Assembly (NCBI GenBank): GCA_026023565.1
Contig: JAPETS010000001.1
Coordinates: 496,001 to 560,000, forward strand
Length of the DNA stretch: 64,000 nt
Origin: Cirrosporium novae-zelandiae
Taxonomy: Eukaryota
Direction: 5' to 3'
Shown: positions 22,620 to 56,087 of the stretch, piece after piece
Layout: every line of letters begins with the position of its first letter
Numbering within the stretch: the first letter of the stretch is position 1
Position numbers and translations under genes: made by a program
Notes under the pieces: generated by a model
Database searches by the model: none
The model's input: only the letters and a program-made list of their open reading frames with translations
What the model was told of the DNA's origin: nothing

Positions 22620-25600
22620 CTGGTCCTGGAATGGTTTTTTTTTTTTTTACCAACGACACCAATCAATATATCCTCGGGTATAATCTGGCTCCCCTGGCTC
22701 CTTTGTACTCCTTATGTGAGCTTCCTGGATAATTGTATTTCTAATGTTACTTTACGATTCCAAGAACGAAAAAGAAAACGAAGAAGAGGTATTCTTGAAG
22801 AAAATCAACTTGCTGAAGGGTACTAATTACCTTAATGCGATTACACCCTAAAAGTTTTCTCTCTCTCGCACACACATATACATACACGGACTTTATTATG
22901 TACCTGCCTACCCACACAGGTTCCAAAAATGAAGCAGGATTGATTCACACAAAACTCGTTTCCTCACTACACTATTTGCCTTACCAAATGATGGGTGTCT
23001 TATATCTAATGCATGTATATGTCAAATATATAATATTTAACACAAGCAATAATCATCATCATCATTATTATTATCTTGCGAAACAAACAATGGTAATAGG
23101 AACAATAAACCATTAGTAAACTTTTAAAAAAGCAAAGCCAACAACTCTTAGTCTACCTACCTAACTAGCTAAGCTAAGCCAGAAAGGAACGTGGGATATC
23201 TACAGTATCTATCCGTTAGATAATTACTTGAGCGGATACCATACTGTACCTAGTGTTAGTGTTAGGAAACTAGAAAAAAAAATGATCGATCTTAGGAAAG
23301 TAGGTAGACTAGCTAGGCCTTTAACTATAAATAAAATCACTAGCAGTTTTTTTTTTGTTTTTTGCAATACCAAATTTATATTTGAATTTGGATTTGAATG
23401 TCCCCTTAAAGCTGAAAGAAGGATGAAAATTAATTTTGTGTGAAGGCCGCCTGCACAGGAAAAATAATAGTGGGAAAGAAAAGGAAAGGAAACGGGGATT
23501 CGGGGATTTGGGGATTTGGGGATTTGGGGAGGAGTTTATTTGGGGGATATATAAGAGGAGGGGGGAGGTAGTTGGAAGGGGGATTTTTAATAAGTAACGG
23601 TAGTGTTGAAAGCGTTCTGCAGTAGTGGTAGTGGAAAGTAGAAAGGTTTGATTGTTATACTTACTTACACATACACTTACATTGACACTTGCTGTCTATC
23701 CTACCTTCTATTTTTCCCTTTTCTCCTCCTCCCTTTCTTCCCCCTCCCTTCTACCCCCCTACCCCTACCTATATACAACCATGTCAAATTCCAATATCCC
23801 CCCCCCCCCCCCCACACATACATCCACACCAAGCAAGTAATTAACACAGCATAGCATAGATTTCACTCTAGATATATTCATATTCATATTTGGAGAGAGA
23901 GAGAGAGAGAAATAACGATGGGAAAGAAAGATGGGGGAAGTTGGAGAGGAGGGGAAAGTTGGCTGACTGAAGGTGAGTCTTGAGGGCTGGGAGAGGAGAG
24001 GGGAGTTGGTTGATTGAGGATAAGGGATTTAGATAGTCTAGTTATAAACCCTTTTCCTCCCATTATTAAATATCAAGTTGTAAGCAAGTAAGCTATGAAT
24101 GAAAAACACTAGGCAGGTAGGTATAAGACTTGAAACGGACGGACGAAGAGTCCCTTCCTTTGTAATTATCCATCCATCCCATCCTAATTGCTGTGTTGTT
24201 ATAGTTGGGAACCAAAAATAAAGTAAATGAATCTTATAAATCCCTCAGAAGTCTCTCACAGTTCTTCCATCAAATATAAAATGAGATGTTTTTTCTTATT
24301 CTTATCCTTGTTTTAACTAACTGATTTTAGGAACCGCTACTTTTGAACGTTTATCCCATAGTTGAAAGAAAGCATGAGGGAGGGGGGAAGGGAAGAGAAG
24401 GGAAGGGAAAGAAAGGGAACTTAGGGCGTTGGGCGTTTGGACAGAGAGATATTTTTTCTTCCAAGGAAGGGTGAGGAAGAACCTTGTTAGTAACAGTAAT
24501 AATAAATATCTTGATTCAGTCAGTCTATTTTTTCAAGTAAGCAAGCAAGCAAGTAAGTAAGTAAGCAAGTCCATGCAAATCATAAATCTTTGATATTGAT
24601 ATTGATATTGATATTTTTTAAGCCTATGGAAGGATATAAACTACATTATACTATATACTATATATCTTATAGTCTATAGTCTATAGATAGGTCCGGGTTC
24701 GATACCCTATCCAGTTTAAAAAAAATTATATAAATCTCTCTCTCTCTCTCCCTCTCCCTGTAATAACAAACAAATCCACTCCACTCGCTCCCTTTCTTGG
24801 ATTGATTCATCTATCTGGATTAATTAATTATTTCAATAGGAAAAAAGTGAAGTGATCATAAAAAAATGGGTAGTTGTTAGTTGTAGTTTGTCACACACAC
24901 ACATACATACACACACGCACACACAACGCTTCTACGAATTTGGAGAAGAAGAAGTAGAAGGGGCTGATTTGATTTGAACCATGTGGGTTAGTTACCTAAC
25001 TTATGTTCGAGATTTTAGAACTCTTGAGGAACTTTCTTCAGGGAGAATGAAGACAGACAAAATGATAGAATCTTTTCTAAACTCGACTTGCATTCATCAA
25101 TCGTTCGCAAAGATCCCAAACCAACAGACAGACAGCATGAACAACATTCTATACCAGGAGACATCGACGCATCGAGGTGGATCAGAAAGAATGTGGTTCG
25201 ATAAAAACGATTCCGATTTTTTCTAATTCTTTTTAGAACAAAACGGATTGGATAGTTACCATAAAGCTTGTAAGCCGAGAAGAAAGAATAACTTAGTCGA
25301 ATCCCATCTATCAGTCAGAAAAAAAGAAAATACCCATTTGCCGTTGTTTGTTTCCAACGAACGCTCTCTCTAAGATAAGGGAAGGGCTGAGTCTAAGGGC
25401 TTCAAATGCAGGAGGGAGTTATCGATAGACTAACTGGTGTAGGATCTTTTATCTACTCTATAAAGTTGTAGGGCATAGGACCAGACTATCACTTTATTAG
25501 GGCAAGGCAAGGAACCCTAATGTAAGCAAGCCCCTTAAGTGACCGTACTCGAGTACTGTAATATAAAAACTCTATGTATCTATCTATTCTTACTGGAGTA

Positions 25601-25993
25601 AGATTTATTGCTATTCTATTCTATTCATTTTTATTCCCCGCGCGTGAGTACCCAGTACCCAGTACCTACCCTAATACAATACATGTACATTTACTAATAA
25701 AATCATCTATTCCTTGGTTAGACTACCAACTTCCCTTTAATTAGATCACACGGTTAGTCTATCTCTTTTGGCCCCTCCCCTTTTCTTGCGTAACATATAT
25801 ACACTTACACCTTACACCTACACCTACACCTATGTCGTATTTCATGTATCACTAACTTATTATCCTTTTTCGGTTTTTCTTATGTGTTTCTTGTTTCTTG
25901 TTTTGTAGGAGCTGGAATGGAATGGAATTTTGTGAAACAAGTACAGGGCCCGTACGTATTTGTACTTGGAGAGTACATGGAAAGTATGATTGG

Positions 25994-26024
<31 letters not shown>

Positions 26025-35211: not shown

Positions 35212-37053
35212 TTAGTACCCCGCAGGCTCTTCCTTCGGTGGAAACGTTGGCGCATCTATATTCTCCCTGCATTGTTGCTTCCAATTTCTTGGAGTAAATT
35301 TGTCTGCTATCTCCTTAAAAGCCTCCTATAATTCCAACATAATTAGTCAGTATACCAACTAAAATAGATGTTCGTGAAGATCAATGGAAACCAACAAGGG
35401 TACAGAAACTCTCATCTCCTTCAACGTGATTGCCATTTTTTCGGCAACCTGGAATAGTGATTACGCGATCATTGTAGCGAAGACGAACGTAGTAACCATC
35501 CAATTGAGCACGTTCGGCGGGTGTTAGCTCAGAGAGTGGTCTACGGGCAATAGACTTCCGCTCGTGGCGATGGTAAAAAGGGCTCGATATATTTCCAAGA
35601 AAAGACGTTCCTTGCCCTCCTTTCATTCCCGCCGGAGGGTTCAAGGTGCTGATAGATGAGGCATGTGACTTCTGACGAAACAGTTCTATGGCGATGTGTG
35701 ACGTATATGGAGGCCAAGGTTCGTTTTCAAACGCGCCGAGGGAGGAGAGAATAGAGGCTAATGTGGTATCATGGCAACCACTAAGCGTGAACTTGATGCA
35801 TTTCTCTCCTCCCCTTTCCCTACCTTTCTGCTCGTCTTTTCTGTCGATTTCCAAGATACTATCTAATCCTGTTCTCTCGACACTCGCCATTATTTTGGAC
35901 ACAATATCTCCTACCAATGCACCTATTCCTAGGGAGCGGTACTCCACACTCTCTTTATACCCAGAAAACCATTCTTCGGTGGAGATTCGGTCTACATACT
36001 TACGCAGCTGAGGGTCGTAAAACACCGCTGGAAGCCTGGTAGCCGGTCCATGCGCAAGAGTTGAGTTTATGGTATCATTGATTCCGGATAAACGAGGATG
36101 AGAATCAACAGCTACATTTTGCGAAGCCTCAGGCATCCAGCTGGAGATGAGACGGTTAATATATGCCATTTCGGTTGACGAGTTCCCTAGAGTACAAGTT
36201 AAAGATCAAGAGAATAAAATATGTCAAAGAGTCACTTGTGTATGATCTGATATTCAGGAGTCCCTCCATATTTGTTACTAGCGTTTTCAAACCCAGTTCT
36301 TCCCTGGGCATTTCTAACCTTGGTCGAATTGGAAAAAGGGTATAAACATACATCGATCTGCGGTTCTTTGAGCGAATGCTCTACTTAGATGGTTAAAACG
36401 TCGGCAATTAGAATCATTTGGAAACAATGTCTCATCGCCAGGTGTTCGAGTAAGTATGGTAGGTGGAGGAAATGCGGCCGTCCTAGCAGTTAAAGGATAC
36501 ATTCCCCAAAACGTTTGCTGTACTGACTCTAGAGCCCGAGGAATTGGTGTTGCGCGGAGATAGAACATGTCAGCATCTGCTATTAGTCGCGGCATAAACT
36601 TCAGTTGATCAACATAAAGATGCCGTAACCGTTGGCCCAACTCAAGGGTCGTCTGTCGCCCTTTGTCTGTGAGCTCGCCAAATTGACTATAATCATATTA
36701 GGATTCTTTTGTCAATGCTATAACGTAGCTTACCAAACCCCATCAACCTCCCCATTCTTGCCAGTTGCAATAACTGGGTCATCGTCATCCCCAAAGGTCT
36801 CTATGCGGCGCCGCCATTGCAACTCACTCCAAGATGAAGAATCACTGCTCGTCATTGCAACGCTTGACATCTTCTTTGCAGCATTGCAATACGGCCAATA
36901 TGGTTCGAGGCCAGCATTCCGAAACCGTGCACTAACTGGTGTCCTCTCGCCGTGGCGAAGGAGGATCTGAACAAGTTGAAGTTGTAGTTCTGAAGGATAT
37001 AACCGTGAGATTTCATCAGTGGAGTACGGCTCCCGCGGAATCAATGATGTCAT
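35212..37053 (-). CDS. Histidine acid phosphatase (ACP6-like), multi-exon
   Basis: RHGERTP and CHDTT catalytic motifs, GELTDKG and WPPYTSHIAIEL. The last exon ends EPAGY* at 35212. Confidence 0.92.
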
Positions 37054-37318
37054 GCTGGCACAAATATCTGAATACTGAATACTTTGAGATTCAGGTCCAT
37101 AAAACTCGAGAGACTATCTATTCATCAAGAGATTGTAATAACTAATACGGGGGAAGCTGAATAACATAATAAAATAGATGAGGGGGGATTCGGGATATTT
37201 CTCGGAAGGATCTTTGAGTTTACGAGTAATAAACTCGAGATTTTGACAGCGAAGCTCCGATAAGATATAAACAAGATAAGATAAGATAAGATCTGAGCCA
37301 AGAGACATCGGCAACCCG

Positions 37319-39928
37319 ATGCAAAGCTTCCTTGATTTACGCAAATATCTTTTAAGTGTGCTAATGTCGACACCATATACGTGCCGCAACTGTCAAAGAC
37401 TACTGTTAGATAGAGGGAGAAGTTCATTCCTTGCCCTTTCTTCTATATTCATCAATACGACTACCAAAAGCCAACAATCACGCAAAAATGGTTCCTTATC
37501 GACCCCAGGGAAGCGCATTGATACTAGACGTGGCAGAATTCGTGAAAGTCATGACCACACTCTAGAATCTTTATTCAAGTCTTCCACTTTATCTCTTCCA
37601 ATTATACCTGGTATTCCCCGAGGTGCTTATACGCGCAAAGCTCAACGGCAGAATCGAATCACCAGAAGCAAAAGGGCAGTTGTTCATCGATATAGCTTAC
37701 ATGATATTTCGAAATGGAAAGAGACATTCCACGATCCCTCTTCGAAGATTGAGAATGCCTGGGCGGCAATTCTTGAATATTTAGCAAAAAAAGAAAAGTG
37801 TGATCTGAACTCAACACTAGATGCCGTGGTCAGACAGAGAGAAGATGAATTTATTTGGCCTTTGCTAAAGAAACTGATAAAAGAATGGGCAATTGGAAGT
37901 TTACCAGAACACTTGCCTGCCATTCCAACTCCAGCTATTGCTATGCGAGAGCTTTATTCTATCGATCCTGACCTAGTTTCTATTCGACACTGGAATTTCC
38001 TGTTGGTATCTATGGCTGCCGCAGTGGCGAAAAAGGAAATTCGAAAGGGGCATAGCAAAGACCCTGAGGGATGTCTGGCCGCCCTTGATGATCTCTTACA
38101 AGCTTGGGATTTATTTCTAGATACCTTTTCCTTGGCAATAGATGTTGATGTTCTCACCCAGACAAATATTACTGTAGATGACACTGAAGCCGGAGTACCG
38201 TCAGGACCGAACTCTACTGAGATGCATGATCTAGAGTATGCTAAAGTGTATTCGTACTGGCGTCAGTTTCCATCAAGGCTCCTCTTTGCCAACGACAAAT
38301 TCGCACAAAATAATTCTTCCCTGCAATTTCAGTCGATACCTCGCGCCGCATTTTATGTGAACGATTTGATGGCCAGCTTCTTGTGTACTAGATGTGAGGC
38401 TGATTTCCCGGCCTACACCGGTTCCAAGGCTTTCTGGATATCTATCCTAAATACTACCAAACCCGAATCGCTTGAAACATGCCAACATGATATGAAGGCT
38501 GCAGCGTTTCCGCCACGCATATCACGACGAGTTCGTCGCAGATGGAACTTTATAACCCTTAATGATCATACATTAGGTAAAAGCAAAAAATCCAAATATT
38601 CAGGTAATGATGCCATAGCTCACGAACTTCTTCGAGCACACAATGTGGATAGGATTGATAAGTTGTGGCAATGTCTATCAATTCGTTTAAAACCAAAGCC
38701 TAGTGACAATGGAGCCTCACCAAGGCCGGCCGAGGGTAATTCGATGGAGGAACTTTTCTGTCTATTTACTAAGAAATATATCGCTTTTCATCATCTAGAG
38801 AAAGCTTCTGCTGTTTATGAGCTCATGGTATCCACTGGCTTCCAGCCATCCGAATCTTATATCACAGCAATTGTTGAAGGATCCGTGCTTGCAAAAGATG
38901 TCGGCTTTCAAGAAGCTTTATGGAAGCGGATGGAAGAAGCTGGTGTTAATTTCACTGAGGCCATGTGGATACAGAGGTTGAAGGGCCTTCTCAGAGACAC
39001 AACATACCACCAGAAAGGAATCGACTTGCTTTCCAAATTCATTACTAGCTATGAGACGGTCAGTAGCAATTGCAATACAAACCCTACTACTCCCAAGCCT
39101 ACTACAGAAATTTTCCACTTTGCTGTTACTCAGTTTCTTCGTGCCGGGTATGAAGATGAGGCTTGGAAAGTTTTTCAATGGGCAGAAAGGACTGGAAATG
39201 TGAAAGTGGAGTTGATTAATGCGCTCCTTACCCATATGTCCCGCAATCATAAGGCAGATAGGATGCAAGCTCTCCTGGAAAAGCTGAATGCTTTGGGTCT
39301 GAAGCCGGATGTTGCCACCTTCACCATTATGCTACAGCACATCCTACGAAATCATAACATTGATCCCAATGAACAATTTTCAAGGGTTGTCGAAATTTTA
39401 CGGCAAATGGATGAACAGAATATCAAGCCAAATGTTCATTCTTATGGTGTCATTATCTACCAGTTTCTCCGCCGGTCTATAAATATGGACATTATCAACA
39501 TGATCCTTAATCGTATGGCAGCCCAAAACATAAGCCCCTCGGCACATATCTACACCACCCTCTTGGATCATTTATTTTCTCGAAACCCCCCTGACCTTGC
39601 TGGGGTTGACGCATTATGGCAACAGGTGAACAAACATGATAGGCCTGTTGATCATGTCTTCTACGACCGGCTAGTTGAAGGGTATGGTCGCATTGGGGAA
39701 GTAAGTAAAATGATGTATTTCTTTAGGACCATGCATCAACGAGGCGAGACCTCTGGATGGATCGCTCGAACGCAGGTGCTGGAAGCACTTACTACCGCCA
39801 GAGAATGGGATATTTTGTCAGAGATTATCAAGGATGCAAAAGAGAAAAAAGCTGCTTTTAAATCTGAACCTAAAGCTAAGAAAGGAAGGGATAGGTTTTG
39901 GGATCTGGTAAGGGAACTTGATGTATGA
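37319..39928 (+). CDS. Pentatricopeptide-repeat (PPR) protein, probably mitochondrial
   Basis: Tandem ~35-aa repeats (KPDVATFTIMLQ, KPNVHSYGVII, SPSAHIYTTLL, VDHVFYDRLVEGY) and an Arg/Ser-rich N-terminus. The start may be the ATG at 37364. Confidence 0.85.
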   Translation: MQSFLDLRKYLLSVLMSTPYTCRNCQRLLLDRGRSSFLALSSIFINTTTKSQQSRKNGSLSTPGKRIDTRRGRIRESHDHTLESLFKSSTLSLPIIPGIPRGAYTRKAQRQNRITRSKRAVVHRYSLHDISKWKETFHDPSSKIENAWAAILEYLAKKEKCDLNSTLDAVVRQREDEFIWPLLKKLIKEWAIGSLPEHLPAIPTPAIAMRELYSIDPDLVSIRHWNFLLVSMAAAVAKKEIRKGHSKDPEGCLAALDDLLQAWDLFLDTFSLAIDVDVLTQTNITVDDTEAGVPSGPNSTEMHDLEYAKVYSYWRQFPSRLLFANDKFAQNNSSLQFQSIPRAAFYVNDLMASFLCTRCEADFPAYTGSKAFWISILNTTKPESLETCQHDMKAAAFPPRISRRVRRRWNFITLNDHTLGKSKKSKYSGNDAIAHELLRAHNVDRIDKLWQCLSIRLKPKPSDNGASPRPAEGNSMEELFCLFTKKYIAFHHLEKASAVYELMVSTGFQPSESYITAIVEGSVLAKDVGFQEALWKRMEEAGVNFTEAMWIQRLKGLLRDTTYHQKGIDLLSKFITSYETVSSNCNTNPTTPKPTTEIFHFAVTQFLRAGYEDEAWKVFQWAERTGNVKVELINALLTHMSRNHKADRMQALLEKLNALGLKPDVATFTIMLQHILRNHNIDPNEQFSRVVEILRQMDEQNIKPNVHSYGVIIYQFLRRSINMDIINMILNRMAAQNISPSAHIYTTLLDHLFSRNPPDLAGVDALWQQVNKHDRPVDHVFYDRLVEGYGRIGEVSKMMYFFRTMHQRGETSGWIARTQVLEALTTAREWDILSEIIKDAKEKKAAFKSEPKAKKGRDRFWDLVRELDV

Positions 39929-40437: not shown

Positions 40438-41628
40438 TTATAAATCAAGGGATCCGTGTCTTCTCCTCCGGTCCGTTTTTGTCACGCCCTTCTTTTCCTT
40501 TTTTTTCAGTTCCATCTTCTCTAAAAGCCTTCTCGCCTCGGGCTCCTTCTTTGTCGTCCGAGCACCGGTGATATGCCTTTTCACATGCGCCTTCAAATTG
40601 TCATTGCGTTTGATTGTTTTGTCGCATAAGGGGCACTTATGGACGTCCTCGCCCGTGTGTTTCCTCATATGTCGTTTGAGGTGCTCCGGTCTACGAAAAG
40701 ATTTATCCCTAGATTCACATCCATCAATCATACATCGATGTATGTCTTTACCTTTTTCGATGACAGTGTAGGGTGCATCCATATCAGGCTCCATTTTGAT
40801 TTTGGTGGTCCCTTTCGAACATTCACTTTTGGCTTTCGTGACTCGATTAACCCGAATAGATGGACACTTGGAAAACTTCATCTCGCCGTCAATTGAAGGC
40901 GTTAGAGGCTCTTCCGAGGTATCGATGGAGGAACGCCTAGAGACATCTGTGGAGTAACATGGAGTCATTATCGTTGAAAATGACCCAGAACTACTGGTTG
41001 GAGATGGGCTTCCCAAGGTCCAATTATCGAACGATCTCTCCGAATGATGACTCATTGGGGTGACTGGTTCTGCAAACGTTTGTGCAGGCACCACGGTCTC
41101 GGAAGCACTCTGATGGTCTGTTACCATTGTTGAATTAAACAACGAGGACCCAGGCATTCCAGAATAGTCTTGATTCGACTCAAAAATTGACTGGGAAAAA
41201 CATGCATTGAGGCTTTGATGTTGGGAATCATATATTGACTCAAATGATTGTGGATGCATGAAAGCGTCGTCTATCTGGAGTTGCCTTGACTCTCTCATGC
41301 CTTTCTTACTAATTTCATCCTGGCAGAGGTTTTCATCATCAAGGAACGGAAGTCCAGAAGGCAGTGCGATATCGTAGTAGTGGTCCTGGGGTGATAAAAG
41401 CCCTTGAAACAATACCTCTCCTTGGCCAGAATTACATGAGTCTGTCATGTTCATGGATGATGGTACGCAGTGCGATTGAACCCACGAATGCGGGGTCATG
41501 GCAGAATTTATTCTCTGAGAGAATGAGTCCGCAGGAGTAACCGGTATGCCACTCGAATAAGGGCTGGACAAACATCCGAATTGAGTCTCTATGCGACCAG
41601 GATGTCTCGTTCTGCTGACATCAACCAT
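40438..41628 (-). CDS. C2H2 zinc-finger transcription factor, divergent BrlA-like
   Basis: Two C-terminal fingers, CMIDGC..FRRPEHLKRHMRKH and CPLC...RNDNLKAHVKRH. N-terminal motifs NACFSQSIF and SETVVPAQTFAEPVTP resemble BrlA motifs as I recall them. Confidence refers to the C2H2 call; BrlA orthology is inference. Confidence 0.85.
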   Translation of the reverse strand: MVDVSRTRHPGRIETQFGCLSSPYSSGIPVTPADSFSQRINSAMTPHSWVQSHCVPSSMNMTDSCNSGQGEVLFQGLLSPQDHYYDIALPSGLPFLDDENLCQDEISKKGMRESRQLQIDDAFMHPQSFESIYDSQHQSLNACFSQSIFESNQDYSGMPGSSLFNSTMVTDHQSASETVVPAQTFAEPVTPMSHHSERSFDNWTLGSPSPTSSSGSFSTIMTPCYSTDVSRRSSIDTSEEPLTPSIDGEMKFSKCPSIRVNRVTKAKSECSKGTTKIKMEPDMDAPYTVIEKGKDIHRCMIDGCESRDKSFRRPEHLKRHMRKHTGEDVHKCPLCDKTIKRNDNLKAHVKRHITGARTTKKEPEARRLLEKMELKKKEKKGVTKTDRRRRHGSLDL

Positions 41629-41987
41629 GATGAAAGACGGAGTTTTATGAAATGCTTCATAATCGTTAGTGTGATTTGTTTGTTTAAGATATAGGATATG
41701 GAAGGCTATACAGTGGGTATTTATTTCGCGCCGACGTCTTAAAACCAAGATTTGTGTGCTCTTTTGCTCTCACATTCGACAGACAAGAGGGTAAATGGTT
41801 TTTCAGATATTTGAATCATATATCAAGAGGTGAAAATTCTAAAATAGATGAATATGAAATATGTGGGTGGACTCGGGGTAAGTATTAATTCAAATCAAAC
41901 ACTGACTTACTCACGATTTAAAACTGATATAGGTGCTAGGCAAGCCTTTCCCAAACGCGTAGCATTAGTACGTGAGGCAAGGTCAAT

Positions 41988-43036
41988 GGAATGTTCGTAG
42001 TATGTGTGGAGACAATGGCACGGACAATAAGGGTGTCTCTGGCAAACCTCAAATGTTTCAGATGATCACAGCTCTTTTGATAATGGGCTCTTCTACTCTT
42101 CTTGCAAAAACGAATTTCCAACAGCATGGAACCAAGAACTAGAGACCTACTTGATGATCACCATAAAAAGTGTGAGACAGATAGGAAAAGATAGAGAGTG
42201 TGACGGGAATTGGGTCTCTTCTGGTCTTTCCTTGATCCTACACTACTCTCAAGGCACTCCTCATTCTGGAATGGTTCTAAATCGTCTCCTAGGCTGAAAC
42301 GTATGATCAAAAGGCGTTTAGCAGCAATGAGCGCACATCCTAGGAGGAGCCCTAGCACTGCTGCCCCTCTCCAGGGTTGGATCTCGAACTTCTCTTCCCT
42401 AGGCTTGGACCCGCGTTGGGAAATGCGGTTGGTCTGGGGCTTTGGGAAATGTTGCTCTCCGGCCTCTGGCAGCTTACTGCATAACTAGATGCTATCGCTT
42501 AAGTTACAAGCTCATGTCGTTTAGCCTCCGAAGACACGTTATCGATTGTAGTTTGCGGAGAAGTCTGAAATTACTTGCATGTGACTTGCATTACTGGGAG
42601 ATGCATATCTGGCATCCGCAACTGGCTATGACAGCCTATGTAAACTTCTCCAAGAAAATATGTCAAGGACCATTTTGATACAGGTCAGATTGATCTCTCA
42701 TATCTTTGAACGTCATGTTCTAAGGATATTCGATTTCTGCCATGGAATGGGACGATTGACAAACGGGCCGTTACACTCGTTATCTAAACTACCGATGGTT
42801 TTCAACATTCCTAGACTTGAACCAGGGCAACCATACCAAATGCAGGTTTTTTTTATATGAATTAACCAAATGCGTCATTCCAGGAAACTTCATTGGAACC
42901 AATCAACAATCTACTTTGCAAAGTCTTGGCTCAATGTTGCTGTCTGTGCGGTTAGATGCAGGCATACGCCAAAGACCCCGGCTAACGACTCTAAAAGAAC
43001 AAGAAGGAATGGGCTGTCAAGCAGTGTTTAGGAATG
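41988..43036. promoter_or_regulatory. Cluster of eight CATTCY (AbaA/TEA-type) sites
   Basis: CATTCY or RGAATG at 41988, 42262, 42268, 42744, 42806, 42876, 43006 and 43031. Confidence 0.55.
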
Positions 43037-44779
43037 TATTAAGTGGTCACCAAGAAATTCCTTCAAATTTCTATTAGGAGCCAGCCTTACACATGAACCC
43101 CGGCACTGACTCAGGGAGCCAAATCATTTGTCGTAAATGCTTAGTAAATGGGCGTTTTGTCATCCAGTCTTTTTACTATCAGGAATATCCGGCGTTGACC
43201 CGACCTTCGATGAGAACCATCTCAAGCCTATTCTTACTTGCATATACCTGAGCTAACGCGGTGCTCTATTATTATCAAGCGGAAGGAATAGTAGCTCTTC
43301 TAGATCTGCGAATAGGTCCAAATGGGTTCGAATGGGATACCTGTCATAGTTGGAAATCTGCTTTCCCCAATTCTACCAATCTTGCAGAATTACAGGGGCC
43401 ACTACTCTAATGCAAGCTACAAACTGGAATCAACCTGGCTCGAAGCAACACCATCTCAGCAGTTCAACAAGAAACGCCTTGCAAAAAGGCTATGCGCAGG
43501 TACCGGGAAACCTGTCGGTGCACACGAACCCAGAAACCCACTTCGAAATAGCCTTGAAATTACTTATGATGTTCCTCATAATATTGTAATTCATGCCTAC
43601 AAGCTTTCTACCCTCGATGTCACATTCGGCTTGCCGTCCTTGCTTTGCCTTTCAACCCCCAATCTCCAACATGCAATCTCTTTATTATCCGATTCCCGAC
43701 GAATGGTAGTTGCTATGTATCTGGGAGCGCATCAGGGTTGTCATAACGCAAGTTACCTTAGATTGCGGACACCGTTCACCAGTTCTATAACCAACATCTA
43801 TTTCTTCGGTACATCAAATTTACAATGTCTCTTTTTACACTCAAATGTAACTCCAGAAGAGGGATCAAAAAAAAGATGTCAGATTGAAAAGAATACATTA
43901 CACGTCCTCTCTTCCTAACCCTTGAGCATAACCCACTTTCCCCCACCTGCAACGACCGAGTTCTAAAGCAGGACATTCTCGGCTGAGGTTGTCCAGACCT
44001 TTGAGTCAAATCTGGGGAAGTAATCCCACCAAAGCGGACATCTCAGATTGACTACCCTGAGCGTTTGTTTGATGCCGAATGATGGCAGCCACTTGTGTTC
44101 CGTTTCGGGGGTCCGGAGACCTTCAAGTGGCGTTCCGACTTGGAACGGGTTCTTGCTCGGTGATGATATGGTCATTCACCTCATGAACCATTAGAAAAAA
44201 AAAAGTACGACTAGAGATAAGGGGTCTCTCTCTCCCAGAACCGGCTAATTACTTGACAGGTTGGTTTATGTAAATGCAACAACCGGAAAAAAGGTTGATG
44301 GTTTTCGAATTGGACTTTAATGTTCCTTCTTCCTGCAAAAAAAAAGTCTTTGCATTTGGTTTTCTGGAACACAAAGACACAGGACAGGCCTTGTCCAAGT
44401 CTTTTTTTTAAAAAACCACCAAAGCTGAACTTTTGTTCGAGATCCAATCTAATCGATAGACTCAACACGCTTCTCAAACACATCCCTAATTTAAAAAAAA
44501 AGGGCACATCTAATCAAATCTGATTTTTTTAATTTTTTTTTTAATTTTTGGACTTCCAAAGGCCGGATATCAACTTTGAAAACTTGGTTCCAACTTTTTT
44601 TATTGGTATGTCTTATGATGTAAGAGATCTACAAATTCACTTTAACGATTTAAACGTATTTGTTACGGCGCAGCCAGGTTATATATCCCACGTCCTTTTC
44701 TTTTTTGGCTTAGTTAGGGAAGAGTGTTGGCTTGCCTTCTAACAGGTTGACTAATTTAATAACGGGGAATTCGTTTAGA

Positions 44780-46220
44780 CAGACAGCCAATATGGCTAAC
44801 ATTTAACATCCATCTAATTTAAATTTCCAAATACAAATCTATATCCGTAAAATGTCTTTCCCAACTAACCCTGGAAGAAAAAAACCACATCCAGATATTA
44901 CTCCCCACTCTTCTTTTTCCCTTTCACCTTCACCCTTTCCCCCTTCCTTTTTTCTATATATATACTAAATCCAACTAACTGATTATATCAAGTAAGAGTA
45001 TACTGTATAGTAAAATATCCCCTTCTTTCTACCACCCCCCTCCCCTACTCCCTACAGACTAAACAAGATGAGAAAAGGGGGGGAAGGGTGAGGGGGAGGA
45101 GAGGGAATTAATAGAAAATAAGACGAAGAAGAAGAAGAAAAAAGAAAAAGATTGTCTTTCCCATTTATTCACTCACTCACTCACTACTAATCCAACCAAC
45201 CAACCAACCTCTTTCACTTTCTCTTTCTCAACAAAGACCACCTAGGTATTTACCTATTCATGAAAAGCAAATCAAATCAAATATACTTATTACGCACACA
45301 CACAAAACCCAATAGACATTTAATGGAGATGATAGTAGATATTATTATTATTATAATATAATTATAATTCCACACACGTCTTTCATTCTCTCGCTTTTAG
45401 ATATCCAATTATCTCGCTCGCTAAAAAACGCCTTTCCAAATTGAACAAATACAAAAAACCAACATCGAAAAAAACGCTTCAAGCAATTAATCGCCCCATT
45501 TCTTTTTTCAACCTGAAACATCCATAATGATTATTCAAAAACAAGGTGGAGGAAGGAACGTGGAAAGTGGAAAGGGGGGGGTTAGGTCGCTACTTCTAAA
45601 CCGATAACGGAATATAAAAAATTCCCTTATTGGTCTAAAAGTCTCCTGAAGAATTGAAGATAAAGGTAAGAATATCAAGAATAATGACAAGGGAGAAAAA
45701 AAAAAGGCCTGATCCAAAATGACTGACTGGCTGACTGATAGATGTTAAAGATAATAAAATATTATCCTCTCCTCTCCTTATGTCAATACTGAAACCATTT
45801 AGGATCCGTATCCAATAAAATAAAAAATCCCTCTTATCCTTATCTTTTGGGTAAAATGTGATGATGCGAATCAAAACGCCATTGCCGAGAAAGAGAGAAA
45901 TCCGAATATCAACATGCATGTCCACTATTCTGTTCCAGCCGTGCGTACATAAGTACGTACCTAACCAATAAAATTGTACCCAAAATATTCCCAGGGCCGT
46001 TTCGTTCCATTCCATGCTGTTTCATCCAGCTCCTTTGTATTTCAATTCGTTCGTGAATGCCTGTTTTGTGCCGCTGCCGAGAAGAACTCCCCGAAAAAAA
46101 AAGCAGAAAAGAAGAAAAAGTGAACATTTGAGGATCTTTAATGAAAACATAAAACCTCTTCGTGGGGTTGAGTATTCAAGGCATGATAATCCGGGGTGTA
46201 TGGTGAATAGGAAATAGAGA
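44780..46220. repeat. Low-complexity purine/pyrimidine-tract island
   Basis: (GAA)n, (TCAC)n, (CCAA)n, (ATT)n and poly-A/G tracts between the C2H2 upstream region and the SPT20 3' end. Confidence 0.75.
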
Positions 46221-46225
46221 ATATA

Positions 46226-46562
46226 CTATCTCATCCCCCCATTCATCTGGGCTTGGGCTTGGGCTTGAGCTTGAGCTTGGGCTTGAGCTTGAGCTTGAGC
46301 CTGGGCTTGTTGTGCCTGAGCAACGGCCTGAGCCTGGCGTAACCTAAACATTTGCTGTTGTTCTGGTGTTAATGAAGCCATGTTCACGCCATTCATTCCG
46401 CTCATGGCCATGCCCATTCCCATGGCTCCCATTGCCATACTATTCATGCCGTTCATTCCATTCATTCCGTTCATACCACCAGCCATGCTATTCATCCCCA
46501 TACTTGTTGGGATTCCTGCATGCCCATTCATTTGTGCCCCTTGTTGCTGAGCATGTAGCTGC

Positions 46563-46594
<32 letters not shown>

Positions 46595-49468
46595 CTGTCG
46601 CATAAACTGTTGTTGTTGCATTATCCGCTGCCGGAGATCTTGGTGGGCAGTATCTTTCGCTTGCTTGTCAATCAGGGCTGTGACTTCAGGGGTCATGCCA
46701 TTTTGACCGACTCGTGCAAGCATTTGTCCATAGCCTTGCCGTCTCCTAATCTGAGTTCGTTGTTTTAACCATTCTTGGAGTTGATGTGCACTGTATTGGT
46801 TATTTAGATTTGGATGACTATGCTGTTGTTGCTGGACTTGAGGATGACCTTGCTGAGAGGCGCTTGCTGACATAGCTGTTTGAAGGTGGGCATGTTGGGG
46901 TTGGGCTTGTGGAGGACTTGATTGGGGTGGGTGAGGTTGAAGTTGTTGTTGTGGCTGAGGAGTATTTTGTGGTCGCGGTTGTTGTTGCTGCTGAGCATTC
47001 TGTGCTTGCTGCTGCATTTGTTGGTTCTGCATTTGTTGGTTCTGCATCTGCTGGTTTTGCATTTGTTGCATTTGAGCCTGCATCTGTCTTTGTAGTTGTA
47101 CGTTGTAACTCTGCTGGTGCATCTGTGGATTGAATTGATGCATCATTTGATTGGTCCCTAGCATGGGGGAACCTTGGCCCTGCTGTTGTCGGCGGAGTTC
47201 CATTTGTTGTTGGAGCATTCGCTGCTGATGGGCCTGCATTTGTTGCTGATGTTGAGCAGGGGTCAGCCCAAGCGAGCTCATCTGAGGAGTATTCATTATC
47301 CCGTTATTCATCATTGGCGTATTAGCCATGACAGATTGCGCTGGGCTAGCGTGAGACATTCGAGGGGTGGGAACAGCGTTCACATGTCTAGTTACAGGAG
47401 TTGCCTGCTGCATAGTAGGGGTTCCTTGAGGCATTATTGGTGTCCCCTGAGCGCTCTGGCTCTGTTGACTGCGTTGTCGGCTCATCGAGTGCGTCATAGG
47501 AACAGCTTGTGGATGAGGATGTTGGAGAGACGATGATCCAGGACGAGGACTACCGGCCTGTTGTGAAGGAGAAAAATTCATCGGAACACTTTGACCAACA
47601 AGTGGTGACGAGTTTTGAGGAGTTTGATTTCTAAGAACGGGAGAAGACTGCTGACCCTGAGAAAAGCCTATTTGTGGTGCAGTTGGACTTCCCATCATTC
47701 CGTTCATTTGGGGATGGGAGTGAGGATTTGGAATATTTACCATATTCCGTTGAGCCTGTCTCATCCGCATTTGTTCTCGTTGCTTCTGGTCTTCATTTAA
47801 CCTCTGTCGTTCTCGTTCTGCTGCATCATGCAGTTGTCGTTTCTGCTGGTCCTGTCGTACTTTCTCCTCTTTCTCTTGCCGTGCATTTGCTTCATGTAGT
47901 CGTTTAATGTCCTCGATGGCTTTGAACCTTGAGAACTGTGGCTCAAACGATGCCGCTCCTGTCTGACCTTCGCCTGTTGCTGGATTTGCCCCAGAAGCAA
48001 CACCGGCTCCAGATCCATGCAACTCATCCATGGCAAGCATATATCTTTCCGTTTCTGCAGCTTGTGCCTCGTCTGCAGCCAGTTCTGCGACAGTCCGTTT
48101 CCGAGTCTTTGGTGAGGGAAGTGGGGCTGAGTGCAGAGGGTCCTGAAGCGCGTTAACTAACTTCTGGACTTCGTTGAAGTCATGTACCAGGTCCAGAAAT
48201 AGTGGTGGGGCAGTTGCATTAGTTATTCTTGCTTCAAATTCCTTAATATCTTCATTTGAGTCGATCATCATCTTTACCTTCTTTAAAGGAGGGCCTTTGC
48301 CCGGTAGATTTGGAGGTACTGCAGAGAGGGGTGTTGGAGAATGAGACATTGTTGCTGAGCTGGGAGTCCGAGGATTGTTGTAATATGTAGACGGTCTTCG
48401 AATTAAACTTCTCGGATCTGGCTGTGTTGCATAGTACTCAAGGTCGGCAAATTTCGAGAGTGGGGTAGGATGGAGAACCCTCGTGAAAACCCGGGGGGTT
48501 TTTCGGCCATCTTTCGAGCCTTTTTCCTCTGTACCATTAGAAGCTATGTTAGACTCGCCCGCACTAGTGTCTTTCGCATCCCCTTTTAGTGAGGTTTGTT
48601 TTTGGGCCTCCTTGACTTGTTCTTTCGTAGAAGACCGAGATGGAATTGGATAAGGTACGTAGGGAGATGGCGTGAGATATTGATTGTGATTATGTATGGA
48701 GTATGGAATGTTCTTTTCTGAATTTGATATACCTGAAGGCGCAGAAGACGAGCCTGCGCCGGATCTGTGGTCGTAAACACGGACAATTAAGCAGTCTGCC
48801 ATCATAAGTTAGAACATGGATCTTGTCCCTGTAGGGAGTATTTTACCATCGTAAAATCGAACGCCATAGTTTGTGAACTCCTCTATCATATCCTGGGGAA
48901 TCGTTTGCTCTCGGAGATGTTTTATAAAAACGCTCATAACCGAATTGTAGCTAAAGCTACCATCTTGATTCTCAAATCGAAAATGCGTAGGATGAAGGTG
49001 CACAACCAAAGAAGGTTCAGCATTCTTGTACTTTTCCAAGATAAATTTGGAGGTTTTGACTTGAACAGAAACATCAATTAGTAAATGAGACCGGCCATTA
49101 CGACGGTTGAGATTCCTACCATAAGGTTCTGGATAGTGTTTTTGTCTTTCGCTGCTACTCTTATCAGATGTGCCTCCACTCCGTGCTAATGCTCTTTGAG
49201 CTCGAGCATGCATTGCATACGCATGGTCTAATCTCGCAAGGTCTTTGCGCTGTCGATTGAGCCTGGGCCCAAGCACGTTCAATTGTGTATTACCGCTCGC
49301 GGCAGAGTTTGTAGGTTGGCCCTGTCCAGGAGGAAGTCGTTTCGAGGTCATAGAGGGGGAAGTGGAGTTTGGTGTTTTGATACCGTTGATACCAGAATGG
49401 AGAGATTGAGAAGGACGCTTCAGCTTGGGAAGGGGCTGAGCAGATTTCGTAGAAATAGCAGTCGCCAT
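46226..49468 (-). CDS. SPT20: SAGA complex subunit Spt20, with Q-rich C-terminus
   Basis: PSLVVHLHPTHFRFENQDGSFSY, VRFYD|DCLIVRVYDHR, VLHPTPLS and RKRTVAELAADEA, followed by long polyQ/QA tracts. Confidence 0.92.
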
Positions 49469-50098: not shown

Positions 50099-51515
50099 TC
50101 AATCCCGTCCGCCTACTCTCCTTCTCCAATCTTCTCCAACCCTCATCCCGTCCACTATCTCGACGCCTTTTCCAAAACCAACCCTATTATCTCTTTGCCA
50201 CCACTTTTCCGGCTTCTTTCCTGATCCACCTCTTTCATCGTCACTATCTATTAGGCCTCCGAGGCCAGCTTCATCACCAACGACGACAAGGACTTGTCGT
50301 ACCCAGTTTGAAACATGCAGTATAGATTCTCCGCTTTCGCCAGCCAACGATTCATGTATATAAGCGATATCAGGGTTCAAATGGCGAAGCATGTGAGTAT
50401 AACCATCACGGGTAGTAAAAGGCATGACCATGGTTTCCTTTTCGACTAGGATCTGGGCTTGATTATACAAAGCTTTGAAGAGAGGAGAGGCAGATGGTGG
50501 AGCATCTGGTAAAGGATTGGGTTCGATGGGTTGTAAAGGTCTATCAAGTTCGGAACCGGGAGTTCTCGCTTCCTCTGTGAGAATATTGGAAAAAGAGGAG
50601 GTCACAGATCCTTCAGGTTTAGTCGGTGAAGAGGCAGTAAGGGGATGTTGTTTCAAATCTGGTGCATATATTAGGATAAAAACCCGGGTGGTATGTAAAT
50701 CAATGAATTCCGGAAGATGTGAAAGTATCGACTATAACTCAAGTCAGCTGGCGCATTTCAACACGTTACTTTAGGGGAAATACAGTATGGACTTCTTCGT
50801 AGTCTCTAGATTCCGGACGAAAGCCTTTTCCGGGTTGAGCAGAGATGACAATTGCAACACTCTTCTTTCTCGAGTACAATCCTGATCTCAAACTCGGATG
50901 TGAAGCCTGCCGACTGGAAGGAGGAGCACCTAAATGTGAATGTATATCGGATCCACCTCTCAAGTCAATGTTATTATGCTGTCTTTCGGCCTCTTCTTGC
51001 CATGCACTCGTCTCCTCATAACCATAATCCCAGTCTCCCCTATTATCTTCCTCCCTAATAGAAGATAACGCTCCACCGACTACGGCACCAGCTGCTGCCA
51101 TGCCAGCAACCACTCTTGTCCTCGCGCTATCGAAAAATTGCTGAGGACTGGGTGTTCTTCGCAAAGCACCAGACATGCGCGATAAAACACTCACATCTTC
51201 CTCCCCATGATCCCTATTATCTCCAGAAGGTCGAGGGGGCATTGGTGGTCCTTGATCAAACTCTGCTCCTGTAGCAAATGACGCCTCCCCTGGACCGAGG
51301 TCGCCATAATGTGGAGGTTTGTCCGTCCTTTGTTCATCATGATTATCGTCGTCATCGTCATCGTCGTCGTCACGTCGTTCGCTCCATATCCATGCAGCAA
51401 GGCCGACGGTTGCAGCAGTCACGGTAATTGCGAGAGGAACCCAGTACCCGAAGGCTGTTCTGCGACCAGAAGCGCCATATCGATGACTTCGAGAACGCTC
51501 ATAAGAATACGACAT
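50099..51515 (-). CDS. Pex22-like peroxin of filamentous fungi, 1 intron
   Basis: N-terminal TM segment GYWVPLAITVTAATVGLAAWIWSER and C-terminal GGLIDSDDE..KWWQ...VGFGKGVEIVDG..GEDWRRRV. Confidence 0.7.
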
Positions 51516-52081: not shown

Positions 52082-54028
52082 ATGCCCCATGCAATTCAAA
52101 TGCCTTCACCAGGCTTTCAAGCCCTAATCCTTTGTGGACCTGGTGTATCCTTGAATACATTTTGTTCAAATCCCGAGGAATTCCCTAAAGCTTTGGTTCC
52201 TATTGCGAATCGACCAATGGTATGGTATGCCTTGGACTGGTGCTATCGAATGGGAATCACATGTAAGTAGAACGTTGTATCTATTAGTATATGTTTCCTT
52301 GACATTGAACTATTATGAAGTATTGTTTCTTGATATATTGTAGATCTCTTTGGCTTTGCATGTACCTATTTGAGTTGTGAAGAGAATATATATTCGTCTT
52401 TGTTAAGTTTCTCTGGGTGAAAAAATACCTCCAAAAATATATATAAAAACCAGTTTATAAATACCTAAGGATTCTCCATTAACTCTGCATTACATGTCCA
52501 CGCTCATTCATAAAACTTTATAACTAACCTGATATTAGCAATCCACCTCATCACACCTCCAGAGGCAGCTCCGGCACTTCAAACAGCACTCTCCCAAAAC
52601 CCGCACCTGACCTCCCTCCCCCTACCAAAACCGACAGTGCTCTCCCCCCCATCTCTGGGTCTCACAACGGGGACAGCATCTCTCCTGCGCATCCCCGAGA
52701 TAGCGTCCACCATAACCTCGGACTTTCTAGTCCTCCCCTGCGACCTCATCACGACCATCTCTCCCACTTCCCTGCTCGAAACCTGGCTGATTCACTGCTC
52801 GGGCCTGGGAGGCGCAACGGGCGGGTCGGCCTCCCAGCCGGGACCAAAAATGGCTCTCGGCGGGGAGAAAACCGGCCGGCGCGGCGGGCTAGGAGTGTGG
52901 TACCCTACCAAAGACGTCGAAGGCGCCATCAAGAAAGAAGAAACCGACTTCGTCGCCACAACCCCACTCCCGCCGCCAACAAGCACGCCACCGTCAGGCT
53001 CACTGCGTCCGCACCTAGCCAAAATCGTCACCTCGATGCCCACCGACACCTTCAACGATAAAATCGAACTGAGCCACACCTACCCGGTCCGACGCAGCCT
53101 CCCCAAACACGGGCGCGTAAAGTACCTCCACACGTACCGCGATGCGCACATCTACTTCCTCCCCCACTGGGTCCTAGAATTCGTGCAGCGAAATCCAGAA
53201 TTCGAAAACATCAGCGAAGACGTGATCGGATGGTGGGCAAAAGCCACATGGCAGAACGACAAGCTGGCCCAAAAACTCCATCTGCGCGAGATTCTGGAAA
53301 CGAAAACTACCCCGGACAAATACGAAACGTACTCGGAACCGATCGCGGAGGACGAGATCGACCTCGCTAGCCTCAGCACCACTCACCCAACCACCACCAC
53401 TACAGGCACAACCACAACCGAAGCAGCATCCCCGATCCCTCCAATTCTGGGCTACCTCCCACCACCACCCTCAACCCCCCCCTCAACAACAACGCACGAA
53501 CCACTCTCGGAAATCCCACAACTCCTCCACCGCGTCGACAGCACTCCTCTCCTCCTCTCCCTCTCCCTAACCCTCGCAAAACTCCCCCCCTCCTCCCACC
53601 CCCTCTCCCACCCCTCCAAACTAACCACCCCCTCCACAATTCACCCGCACACCACCATCACTACCACCGACGTCCTCTTAGACTCCAACGTCATCGTCTC
53701 CGAACACTGCATCATCAAATCCAGCGTCGTTGGCTCCTCCTCCTCTCTTCTTGCTTCTAGTCGCCTTACGAGGTGTTTGCTGATGGAGGCCGTGGAGGTT
53801 GGGGAGAGGGCGACGCTTACGGGGTGTATTTTGGGCAGGAGGTGTCGGATCGGCAAGGGGTCGAGACTTACGGAATGTGAGGTCCAGGAGGGGTATGTGG
53901 TTCCCGATGGGACGGAGGCGAAGGGGGAGAAGTTTATGGCTAGTGAGTTTTTGCAGGAGGAGGGTGATGGGGGGGTAGGGAGTGGGGGGGAAGGTGAGGG
54001 ATTGGATTTGTCGGCTGATTATGATTGA
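52082..54028 (+). CDS. GCD1: Translation initiation factor eIF2B gamma subunit, 1 intron (~52263-52538)
   Basis: GFQALILCGPG...PKALVPIANRPMVWY, DFLVLPCDL, DAHIYFLPHWV and a C-terminal hexapeptide left-handed beta-helix. Confidence 0.93.
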
Positions 54029-54966: not shown

Positions 54967-56087
54967 TTACTTTTTCTTCATCCTCTCTCGCCTCAGTTCC
55001 TCTTCCTTTCGCCCTTCCACCCGTCCCATAAACTCCATCCGGCTCAGGTAGGATCCCTTTGCTTTCTCCTGCGCATCCAATTCTTCTCTGATTCCCTCAT
55101 GATCTACGTGCTCCGCCCAGTCCAGCTTGCTCTTTTCCACGACGGTAAGTTTCTGGGCCTTGGTCTCGGCTGCTGCTGTAGCTAGAGCTGTTGTAGGGGC
55201 GAAAGGAATGGGGAGGCCGTGTAATTTAAGGAGCTTTAAGGAGTATGTGGAAGGGGGGAGGCCTTTGATTTGGCCGGAAGGGTTGGGATCATATTGGGAA
55301 AGGCGTTTGAGTGGACGGCGGAGGGGTGGTCTGTTGGATGTAGGGTCATCGGAAGAACCTTCGGCATTTTTCTTGTTCTTTTGTTTTTCTTCTTCTAGCT
55401 GTTGTAGGTAGAGGCGTGCTTCGGCAGATGATTTTGGGACGACTTTCGTCTCAGTGGTTGTTTGGCCTGCGAAATTGTAGGTCCGGGTTATTGTTATTGT
55501 TTCTTCTTCGTAGGGATATTTGGCGTTAGGCACAGGAACTCCATCGATAAGGTGCGGATCTGAGGGATTAGCTAGATACTGGGAGGGTAGTGTGGGAAGT
55601 CTTGGTCGTCCGAGGGGCTTGGAAATCATCAGGCTCCAAATATCATCGACGTTGAGCGAGGAGGCTTTGATAGATGCTTCTATTCGCTTTTGTTGTCGTC
55701 CCTCGTCCCTTTATAAATGTTAGTATACCTTAAGCAATGCACCACCAGTTCTAAAGAGCTATGTACTCACTCTCTAGCTCTCATAGCCCTTGTTTTAATC
55801 AACCCGCCCTCCGCATCGTCATCGTCACCCTCATTTTTAGCAGTCTTCCGTTTTCGTCGCTTTTTCCCTTTCTGAATTGTCACCTCATCTCCTGAATCTA
55901 GATCTCCTAGTCCTTCATCAGATTTACGCTTCCTTCCTTTTCGGGCGGGCTTCGCGCCCTCATCTTCAGATGAGACATCCTCTTCTGCCGCTACGACAGT
56001 CGGTGCGTCAGGATTGAAGTCTTCATCGAGGGACGAATCTGAGTCCTCGTCAATAATCGGGTCCTGGATTTTTGCTGGAGTGGCCAT
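54967..56087 (-). CDS. SWC5: SWR1-complex subunit Swc5 (BCNT domain), 1 intron
   Basis: Acidic N-terminus DEDFNP, GGLIKTRAMR, ITRTYNFAGQ and the BCNT domain KLTVVEKSKLDWAEHVDHEGIREELD...SYLSRMEFMGRV. Confidence 0.92.

Follow-up and report, generated by a model that had tools for sequence, protein, structure and literature searches.

A two-finger C2H2 gene beside SPT20 in Cirrosporium novae-zelandiae as a probable positional counterpart of brlA

Genes at the locus

The window analysed here is a 64,000-nucleotide stretch of the genome of Cirrosporium novae-zelandiae, in which a gene for a C2H2 zinc-finger protein, P0001, lies beside SPT20, the gene of a SAGA subunit. A preliminary description of this DNA had presented the C2H2 gene as a positional, highly diverged or ancestral-type brlA, the gene of the C2H2 master regulator that directs conidiophore development in Aspergillus and Penicillium and activates abaA. 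The coding sequence of P0001 (40438..41628, minus strand, stop codon included) is a single exon, defined by the list of open reading frames (ORFs), Pfam matches and a coding score. It forms one 396-aa ORF from an ATG, and the public protein collection holds the same 396-aa protein as a called gene, in a one-member cluster. Pfam matched C2H2 families only (zf-C2H2, E 6.8e-09, two stretches, above the curated cut-off), in agreement with the two C-terminal fingers described earlier, and all eight zinc ligands are intact. The fingers, at aa 297–324 (40657..40740) and aa 330–352 (40573..40641), are followed by a basic, K/R-rich tail at aa 353–396 (40441..40572), all encoded on the minus strand. The protein is rich in serine (13.6%), with 7.1% threonine and 6.3% proline; of the "Ser/Pro-rich" character given to it before, the serine part stands and the proline content is ordinary. 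When codon usage is scored with seven neighbouring genes as the training set, the P0001 frame reaches +0.096 bits per codon and the other five frames −0.25 to −0.40, and the N-terminal 295 codons alone are likewise positive only in the P0001 frame. This frame is open for 443 codons from stop to stop in DNA of 43% GC. The gene is real-looking, intact and coding-like. Its Atlas structure model is of low confidence, with a mean pLDDT of 0.48.

The neighbours named in the preliminary description (PPR, SPT20, Pex22-like, eIF2B-gamma and SWC5 genes) were all recovered. A domain scan of the neighbouring genes identified a PPR-repeat protein gene (37319..39928, plus strand) that is convergent with the C2H2 gene. 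On the other side, 4.6 kb (41629..46225) separate the start codon of the C2H2 gene from the 3′ end of SPT20; this stretch is without a recognisable gene and is presumably promoter and 5′ leader. SPT20 (46226..49468, minus strand) consists of two ORF pieces over a short in-frame intron, the whole lying in one frame but for a single stop within that intron. Its long Q-rich tail is a very long, Q/M/N-rich region of low complexity in which (QA)n and (GMN)n repeats occur, and the GMN repeats explain a local CATTCC cluster at 46394–46468. Beyond SPT20 lies the first exon of a peroxin-22-like gene (50766..51515, minus strand), a 249-aa ORF that Pfam did not match and that has, by eye, long motifs in common with its A. 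nidulans counterpart AN0977 (PMC6495382). It is followed by the C-terminal exon of eIF2B-gamma (GCD1; 52850..54028, plus strand; PDB 5b04_E, E 2.9e-13) and by a gene for an SWC5/BCNT-domain protein (54967..55629, minus strand; PF07572, E 1.7e-22).

Gene order shared with the brlA locus

We compared this arrangement with published locus tags; here and below, literature statements refer to the tables, supplements and excerpts of the sources named. In A. nidulans, brlA is AN0973 (PMC7641419), its upstream ORF (uORF) is AN0974 (PMC8306900), Spt20 is AN0976, or RfeE (PMC3676421 Table 3), and AN0977 is peroxin 22-like (PMC6495382 supplement), which places brlA three and the uORF two locus tags from Spt20. 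Further out, AN0979 is BNI4 and AN0972 is a "conserved hypothetical"; neither AN0975 nor AN0978 turned up in a main text, both are absent from the PMC6495382 supplement, and AN0975 is also absent from that of PMC7641419. In P. expansum, the tags of brlA (PEXP_049260) and of an "Spt20 family" gene (PEXP_049270) are consecutive, with a hypothetical gene (PEXP_049280) and an MFS transporter gene (PEXP_049250) at either end (PMC7555563 Table S9).

By these tags, the order C2H2 gene, SPT20, Pex22-like gene in the window is that of the brlA locus, with the 5′ end of the C2H2 gene towards SPT20. Because the uORF tag sits between brlA and Spt20, the 5′ side of brlA faces Spt20 just as that of the C2H2 gene does. 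The brlA–Spt20 neighbourhood, which the preliminary description gave for Aspergillus, was thus correct, is found likewise in P. expansum, and matches the window on the SPT20 side. Its placing of eIF2B-gamma near Aspergillus brlA was not confirmed, as AN0978 appeared in none of the texts and tables searched. The far flank is not conserved, being occupied by the PPR gene in the window and by the MFS transporter gene in P. expansum. Since the position singles out brlA and chance placement is improbable, we take P0001 to be the positional counterpart of brlA. It is probably a strongly diverged orthologue, an assignment that rests mainly on synteny.

The zinc fingers

The fingers of P0001 were compared by eye with those of BrlA, SteA and MsnA, using the A. 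nidulans sequences printed in PMC8396895 Table S2. Finger 1 has C-X4-C spacing, a three-residue insertion before the Phe and the helix RRPEHLKRH, with contact residues R, E, H and R; over aa 299–324 it reads CMIDGC, the insertion, and then FRRPEHLKRHMRKH. Finger 2 bears out the short CxxC noted earlier (CPLC), and its helix KRNDNLKAH, with contacts R, D, N and A, lies within the string CPLC...KRNDNLKAHVKRH (aa 332–352). The contact positions of P0001 are identical in BrlA at 8/8, and in SteA and MsnA at 7/8 each. Overall identity to P0001 is 13–14/25 in finger 1 and 12/23 in finger 2 for BrlA (25–26/48 in total), 14/25 and 10/23 for SteA (24/48), and about 15/22 and 9/23 for MsnA (24/~45).

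Two features are shared by P0001 with BrlA only: an Ala at position 6 of finger 2, where SteA and MsnA have Gln, and a Met following the first His of finger 1. The C-X4-C spacing of finger 1 occurs in both BrlA and SteA, in BrlA likewise with a Gly preceding the second Cys and the helix ..EHLKRHM, although BrlA lacks the three-residue insertion. The finger-2 helix R.DNL.AH is common to P0001 and BrlA. Across the A. nidulans transcription factors of the same table, EHLKRH occurs in six, RSDNL in the fingers of BrlA, MsnA and SteA only, and DNL.A followed by a zinc-binding His in BrlA only. The finger-1 helix of P0001, RRPEHLKRH, is therefore not BrlA-specific, for it recurs unchanged in AN0096, a Zn2Cys6 protein that has a C2H2 pair at its N-terminus. 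Among 3551 fingers from 289 stored proteins, mostly animal, the contacts R,E,H,R occurred seven times and R,D,N,A three times, and none of the 289 proteins combined the two.

The parallel drawn earlier between the helices RPEHLKRH and RNDNLKAH and those of BrlA therefore holds at the contact positions, and the fingers as a whole do not single out BrlA. The BrlA letters given for that parallel agree with the printed sequence exactly for a 16-letter string and for SKRGGRNRYVATLD, and are slightly off for two other motifs, printed as NPCLSRSIF (given as NPCLSRPIF) and PQTIAPSQVGPVTP (given as PETIAPSQV..PVTP). Etxebeste 2021 proposed that BrlA, SteA and MsnA may have a common ancestor, and sequence by itself places P0001 within this BrlA/SteA/MsnA finger group.

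The N-terminal motifs and the upstream region

Outside the fingers, a block at aa 141–191 (41056..41208, minus strand), running from NACFSQSIF to TVVPAQ..PVTP, is by eye collinear with BrlA aa 171–223. NACFSQSIF (141–149) corresponds to NPCLSRSIF (171–179) of BrlA, and TVVPAQ..PVTP (178–191) to TIAPSQ..PVTP (212–223); a third, weaker motif pairs FLDDEN (95–100) with FLSGYDEN. All three are collinear in the two proteins, and the first lies 158 aa from finger 1 in P0001 and 151 aa in BrlA.

The brlA gene has a long leader with a uORF and produces overlapping alpha and beta transcripts. In the window, 43 stop-to-stop ORFs of at least 50 aa overlap the 4.6-kb stretch upstream of the C2H2 gene. We scanned 24 of these with Pfam, comprising all 14 minus-strand ORFs wholly upstream of the C2H2 start and the 10 longest plus-strand ORFs, and found no credible match among them; three ATG ORFs of the stretch are absent from the public protein collection. 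One ORF in the middle of the gap (43322–43918, plus strand) encodes 198 aa from an ATG, is without a Pfam match or public protein entry, and has a near-neutral coding score of +0.03 bits per codon. It may represent a counterpart of AN0975 or an orphan gene of small size, or be no gene at all. Two AT-rich stretches, at 44001–46000 and 24001–26000, have a GC content of 0.37 against about 0.44 elsewhere and could represent regulatory DNA or repeats in decay; the former, next to the 3′ end of SPT20 within the gap, includes K/E-coding runs that resemble homopolymers.

Within 1.5 kb upstream of the C2H2 gene, eight CATTCY motifs occur at 41988–43036, against a mean of 2.4 per 1.5 kb in the window, and 0.64% of 1.5-kb intervals reach eight. 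CATTCY is the type of AbaA site that Mead et al. 2020 counted upstream of brlA orthologues, and the enrichment gives a weak hint of predicted AbaA-type sites.

Weighing the assignment

Several observations weigh against assigning P0001 to brlA. The gene order that carries the assignment was taken, in both A. nidulans and P. expansum, from the sequence of locus tags and not from coordinates. In addition, a fungal metagenome contig (L001, 1–8811) has a different gene 585 bp after SPT20 and no adjoining C2H2 gene. Its Spt20 SEP domain is 65% identical to that of the window, and it is the one locus that a metagenome scan with this domain gave. The gene after SPT20 on this contig is convergent, encodes 1058 aa with a faint PPR_2 match (E 0.0096) and no BLAST similarity to the PPR gene of the window, and is followed by a DUF2834 membrane protein gene; the contig fits the slot 3′ of SPT20 being empty in some fungi. 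The genes of L001 also occur on longer ENA (30,185 nt) and Logan (9,992 nt) contigs. A second, canonical brlA may also exist elsewhere in the Cirrosporium genome.

The protein itself raises further objections. Finger identity does not discriminate between BrlA, SteA and MsnA at the level of the sequences compared. Finger 2 of P0001 is C-X2-C/H-X3-H, as in SteA and MsnA, whereas that of BrlA is C-X4-C/H-X4-H (CWVPGC/HYTKTH), and the BrlA tail of the SKRGGRNRYVATLD type is absent from P0001, as the preliminary description had stated, with an unrelated basic K/R stretch in its place; both the spacing and the tail comparison refer to a single BrlA sequence, that of A. nidulans. Most of the N-terminus is unalignable with BrlA. 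For the part that can be aligned, P0001 aa 141–191 against BrlA 171–223, a gapped alignment scored by hand (BLOSUM62, 11/1) gave a raw score of about 53. Of 3000 random sequences matched in composition to the P0001 N-terminus, 239 score at least as high (P about 0.08), as does 1 of 838 segments taken, with their fingers masked, from unrelated stored proteins. The composition-matched null is the fairer one because BrlA is Ser-rich too. The N-terminal match, presented earlier as two non-finger motifs that parallel BrlA, is present and collinear, and is suggestive, short of significance.

Database searches with P0001 returned no relatives outside the fingers, and no BrlA-named match appeared in the word-index or finger-only searches or among the HMMER matches listed. 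In the word-index search, 14 of 2026 candidates reached E<=0.001, including P0001 itself; the others cover 10–28% of the query and are confined to the fingers, and the finger region alone gave three candidates. HMMER against 1.84 billion representatives gave 25,255 matches at E<=0.001, dominated by animal poly-zinc-finger proteins, and the 149 non-self matches among those listed have 6–27 finger stretches each, all within aa 257–378. In the Atlas, the whole protein fell among C2H2 clusters of a generic kind, and the one with the automatic name brlA, at rank 11 (0.95, 165 shared features), is a lead only; the best score for the N-terminus alone, 0.77, is noise. The CATTCY cluster is not unique either, as a second one, with eight motifs in 1.43 kb at 36500–37926, extends over the beginning of the PPR gene and its 5′ flank. 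The two are tied as the densest in the window, and under random placement the probability of a window-wide maximum of at least eight is 0.38.

With these points set against the gene order, we still regard P0001 as a probable brlA of strongly diverged sequence. The earlier claim of a "positional, highly diverged brlA" is borne out in its positional part, by locus tags, and is weaker elsewhere, the fingers being about equally close to SteA and MsnA and the N-terminal motifs not significant. Its "ancestral-type" character is possible.

One alternative accepts descent from brlA and denies P0001 control of sporulation in this fungus, the conidiation role having been gained later in the Eurotiales. 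We consider it a possibility to be kept in view, if not the favoured one. Nearly all of the non-finger sequence of P0001 differs from BrlA, and Cirrosporium is not known to make a phialidic conidiophore. Etxebeste et al. derive the central role of brlA from network rewiring, which also agrees with a late gain. On the other hand, the DNA-contact residues are fully conserved, and the upstream region is long and has eight AbaA-type motifs, which is weak evidence. Mead et al. 2020 also report BrlA to be retained in Histoplasma, and Onygenales such as Histoplasma and Coccidioides produce aleurioconidia and arthroconidia, and not conidiophores of the Aspergillus type.

Alternatively, P0001 may be a lineage-specific member of the Msn2/MsnA – Ste12/SteA – BrlA group, such as a regulator of stress or nutrient responses, that came to lie beside SPT20 independently and is not of brlA descent. 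The finger identities, the SteA/MsnA-type spacing of finger 2, the missing BrlA tail and the non-significant N-terminal similarity would all suit such a protein, and full-length relatives were found neither in the word-index search nor among the HMMER matches listed. We nevertheless consider it unlikely. With about 10,000 genes and a three-member subgroup in A. nidulans, the chance of such a gene landing 3′ of SPT20 in the brlA orientation is estimated at <<1/1000; the linkage of SPT20 to the Pex22-like gene has been kept between Cirrosporium and two Eurotiales, as far as their tags and annotations go; and the Ala at position 6 of finger 2 is found otherwise in BrlA only.

A chance ORF or decaying pseudogene is very improbable, for although the searches found no homologue over the N-terminal 295 residues and the Atlas model is of low confidence, the length of the open frame in DNA of this GC content, the intact zinc ligands, the Pfam match above its cut-off and a coding score positive in the P0001 frame only, N-terminal codons included, all speak for a gene.

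Proposed function of P0001

If P0001 is the counterpart of brlA, it would act as a sequence-specific transcription factor. By the recognition code, its fingers are predicted to read an AGGGG-type element. Sites of this type form the BrlA response element and also the stress-response element that Msn2 binds in yeast. The Ser/Thr-rich N-terminus, predicted to be disordered, may serve as an activation region, and the K/R tail is a likely nuclear localisation signal. Like the region upstream of brlA, the 4.6-kb gene-free stretch could hold a leader and a promoter of complex structure. In the last and least certain step, P0001 would turn on asexual spore development. The asexual spores of Cirrosporium are meristem arthroconidia, and a role of P0001 in sporulation is plausible.

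We further speculate that P0001 could be a transitional brlA, combining a finger pair of the SteA/MsnA style with the contacts of BrlA and already placed in the 3′ flank of SPT20. This idea is tentative, and we hold it with distinctly less confidence than the positional assignment. Were it true, brlA would have arisen from an Ste12/Msn2-type finger module duplicated into the locus before the Eurotiomycete radiation, and part of the reported "absences" of BrlA outside the Eurotiales would be failures of similarity search, correctable by a search for synteny.

The known range of BrlA

Cirrosporium belongs to the class Xylobotryomycetes in the NCBI taxonomy and is placed as an early-diverging Eurotiomycete by two phylogenomic studies; its branch point is at the base of the Eurotiomycetes or just outside. 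By both placements it lies outside the Eurotiales, and the novelty of the find does not fall on the host being an ordinary member of that order. The SDA1 ORF of the window has its closest other-species matches, at 70–77% identity, in Lecanoromycetes, Eurotiomycetes, Leotiomycetes and other classes.

Published passages differ on how widely BrlA occurs. The preliminary description had it as largely restricted to the Eurotiales, in line with de Vries 2017, whose survey by BLASTP found it "limited to the Eurotiales"; others extend it further. Ojeda-Lopez 2018 placed it "solely in the Eurotiomycetes" with a HMMER cut-off of e-100, the Etxebeste preprint of 2019 and paper of 2021 gave it as present in the Eurotiales, perhaps in some Chaetothyriales and Endocarpon, and not in the Onygenales, and several papers have it arise "with the class Eurotiomycetes". 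With Histoplasma included by Mead 2020, the excerpts are in conflict over the Onygenales. P0001, as predicted from its sequence, would certainly miss the e-100 cut-off, and it would fail the similarity thresholds of the published surveys. Titles, abstract openings and excerpts of the papers listed in literature searches yielded no published brlA counterpart in Cirrosporium and no report of a brlA–SPT20 linkage.

BrlA is the textbook example of a master regulator that arose late, with an older developmental network rewired around it. The present find leaves this picture standing. Cirrosporium probably falls within the class where BrlA is already accepted, and since it is placed as an early Eurotiomycete and BrlA is held to have originated with that class, the find extends the known range as far as the base of the class and does not overturn it. 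If P0001 is indeed the counterpart, the brlA locus dates to the base of the Eurotiomycetes or earlier. The gene would also provide a natural, very diverged allele with which to ask what BrlA requires, as it keeps the contacts but neither the tail nor the greater part of the N-terminus, and the flank of SPT20 would be a practical anchor for finding brlA where BLAST fails.

Comparison with SteA, MsnA and BrlA

In finger architecture, SteA (AN2290) equals P0001, with C-X4-C in finger 1, C-X2-C in finger 2 and H-X3-H in both; its helices are ..EHLKRH and RSDNL, and its finger 1 is printed as HSCPIPSCGRLFKRLEHLKRHVRTH. SteA is a protein of 692 aa, and its locus is away from the AN0973–AN0977 block. 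Ste12-type proteins carry an STE domain at the N-terminus. We found no such domain in P0001 (E<=1) or in the 24 scanned ORFs of the 4.6-kb upstream stretch, and with none in those upstream ORFs, the P0001 ORF was ruled out as the last exon of an Ste12-like gene.

MsnA (AN1652, 580 aa) likewise has two C-terminal fingers, with helices RRQEHLKRH and RSDNL and a C-X2-C finger 2 like that of P0001. Its locus differs from the position of P0001. The target of Msn2 is of the AGGGG type, and the predicted target is common to MsnA-type proteins and P0001. The identification of P0001 as MsnA itself was ruled out by the differing spacing of finger 1, C-X2-C with H-X4-H in MsnA and C-X4-C with H-X3-H in P0001.

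The coding sequence of brlA is intronless ("No introns as predicted", PMC8396895 Table S2), as is that of P0001. Both proteins are Ser-rich, have a length of about 400 aa and carry their two C2H2 fingers close to the C-terminus.

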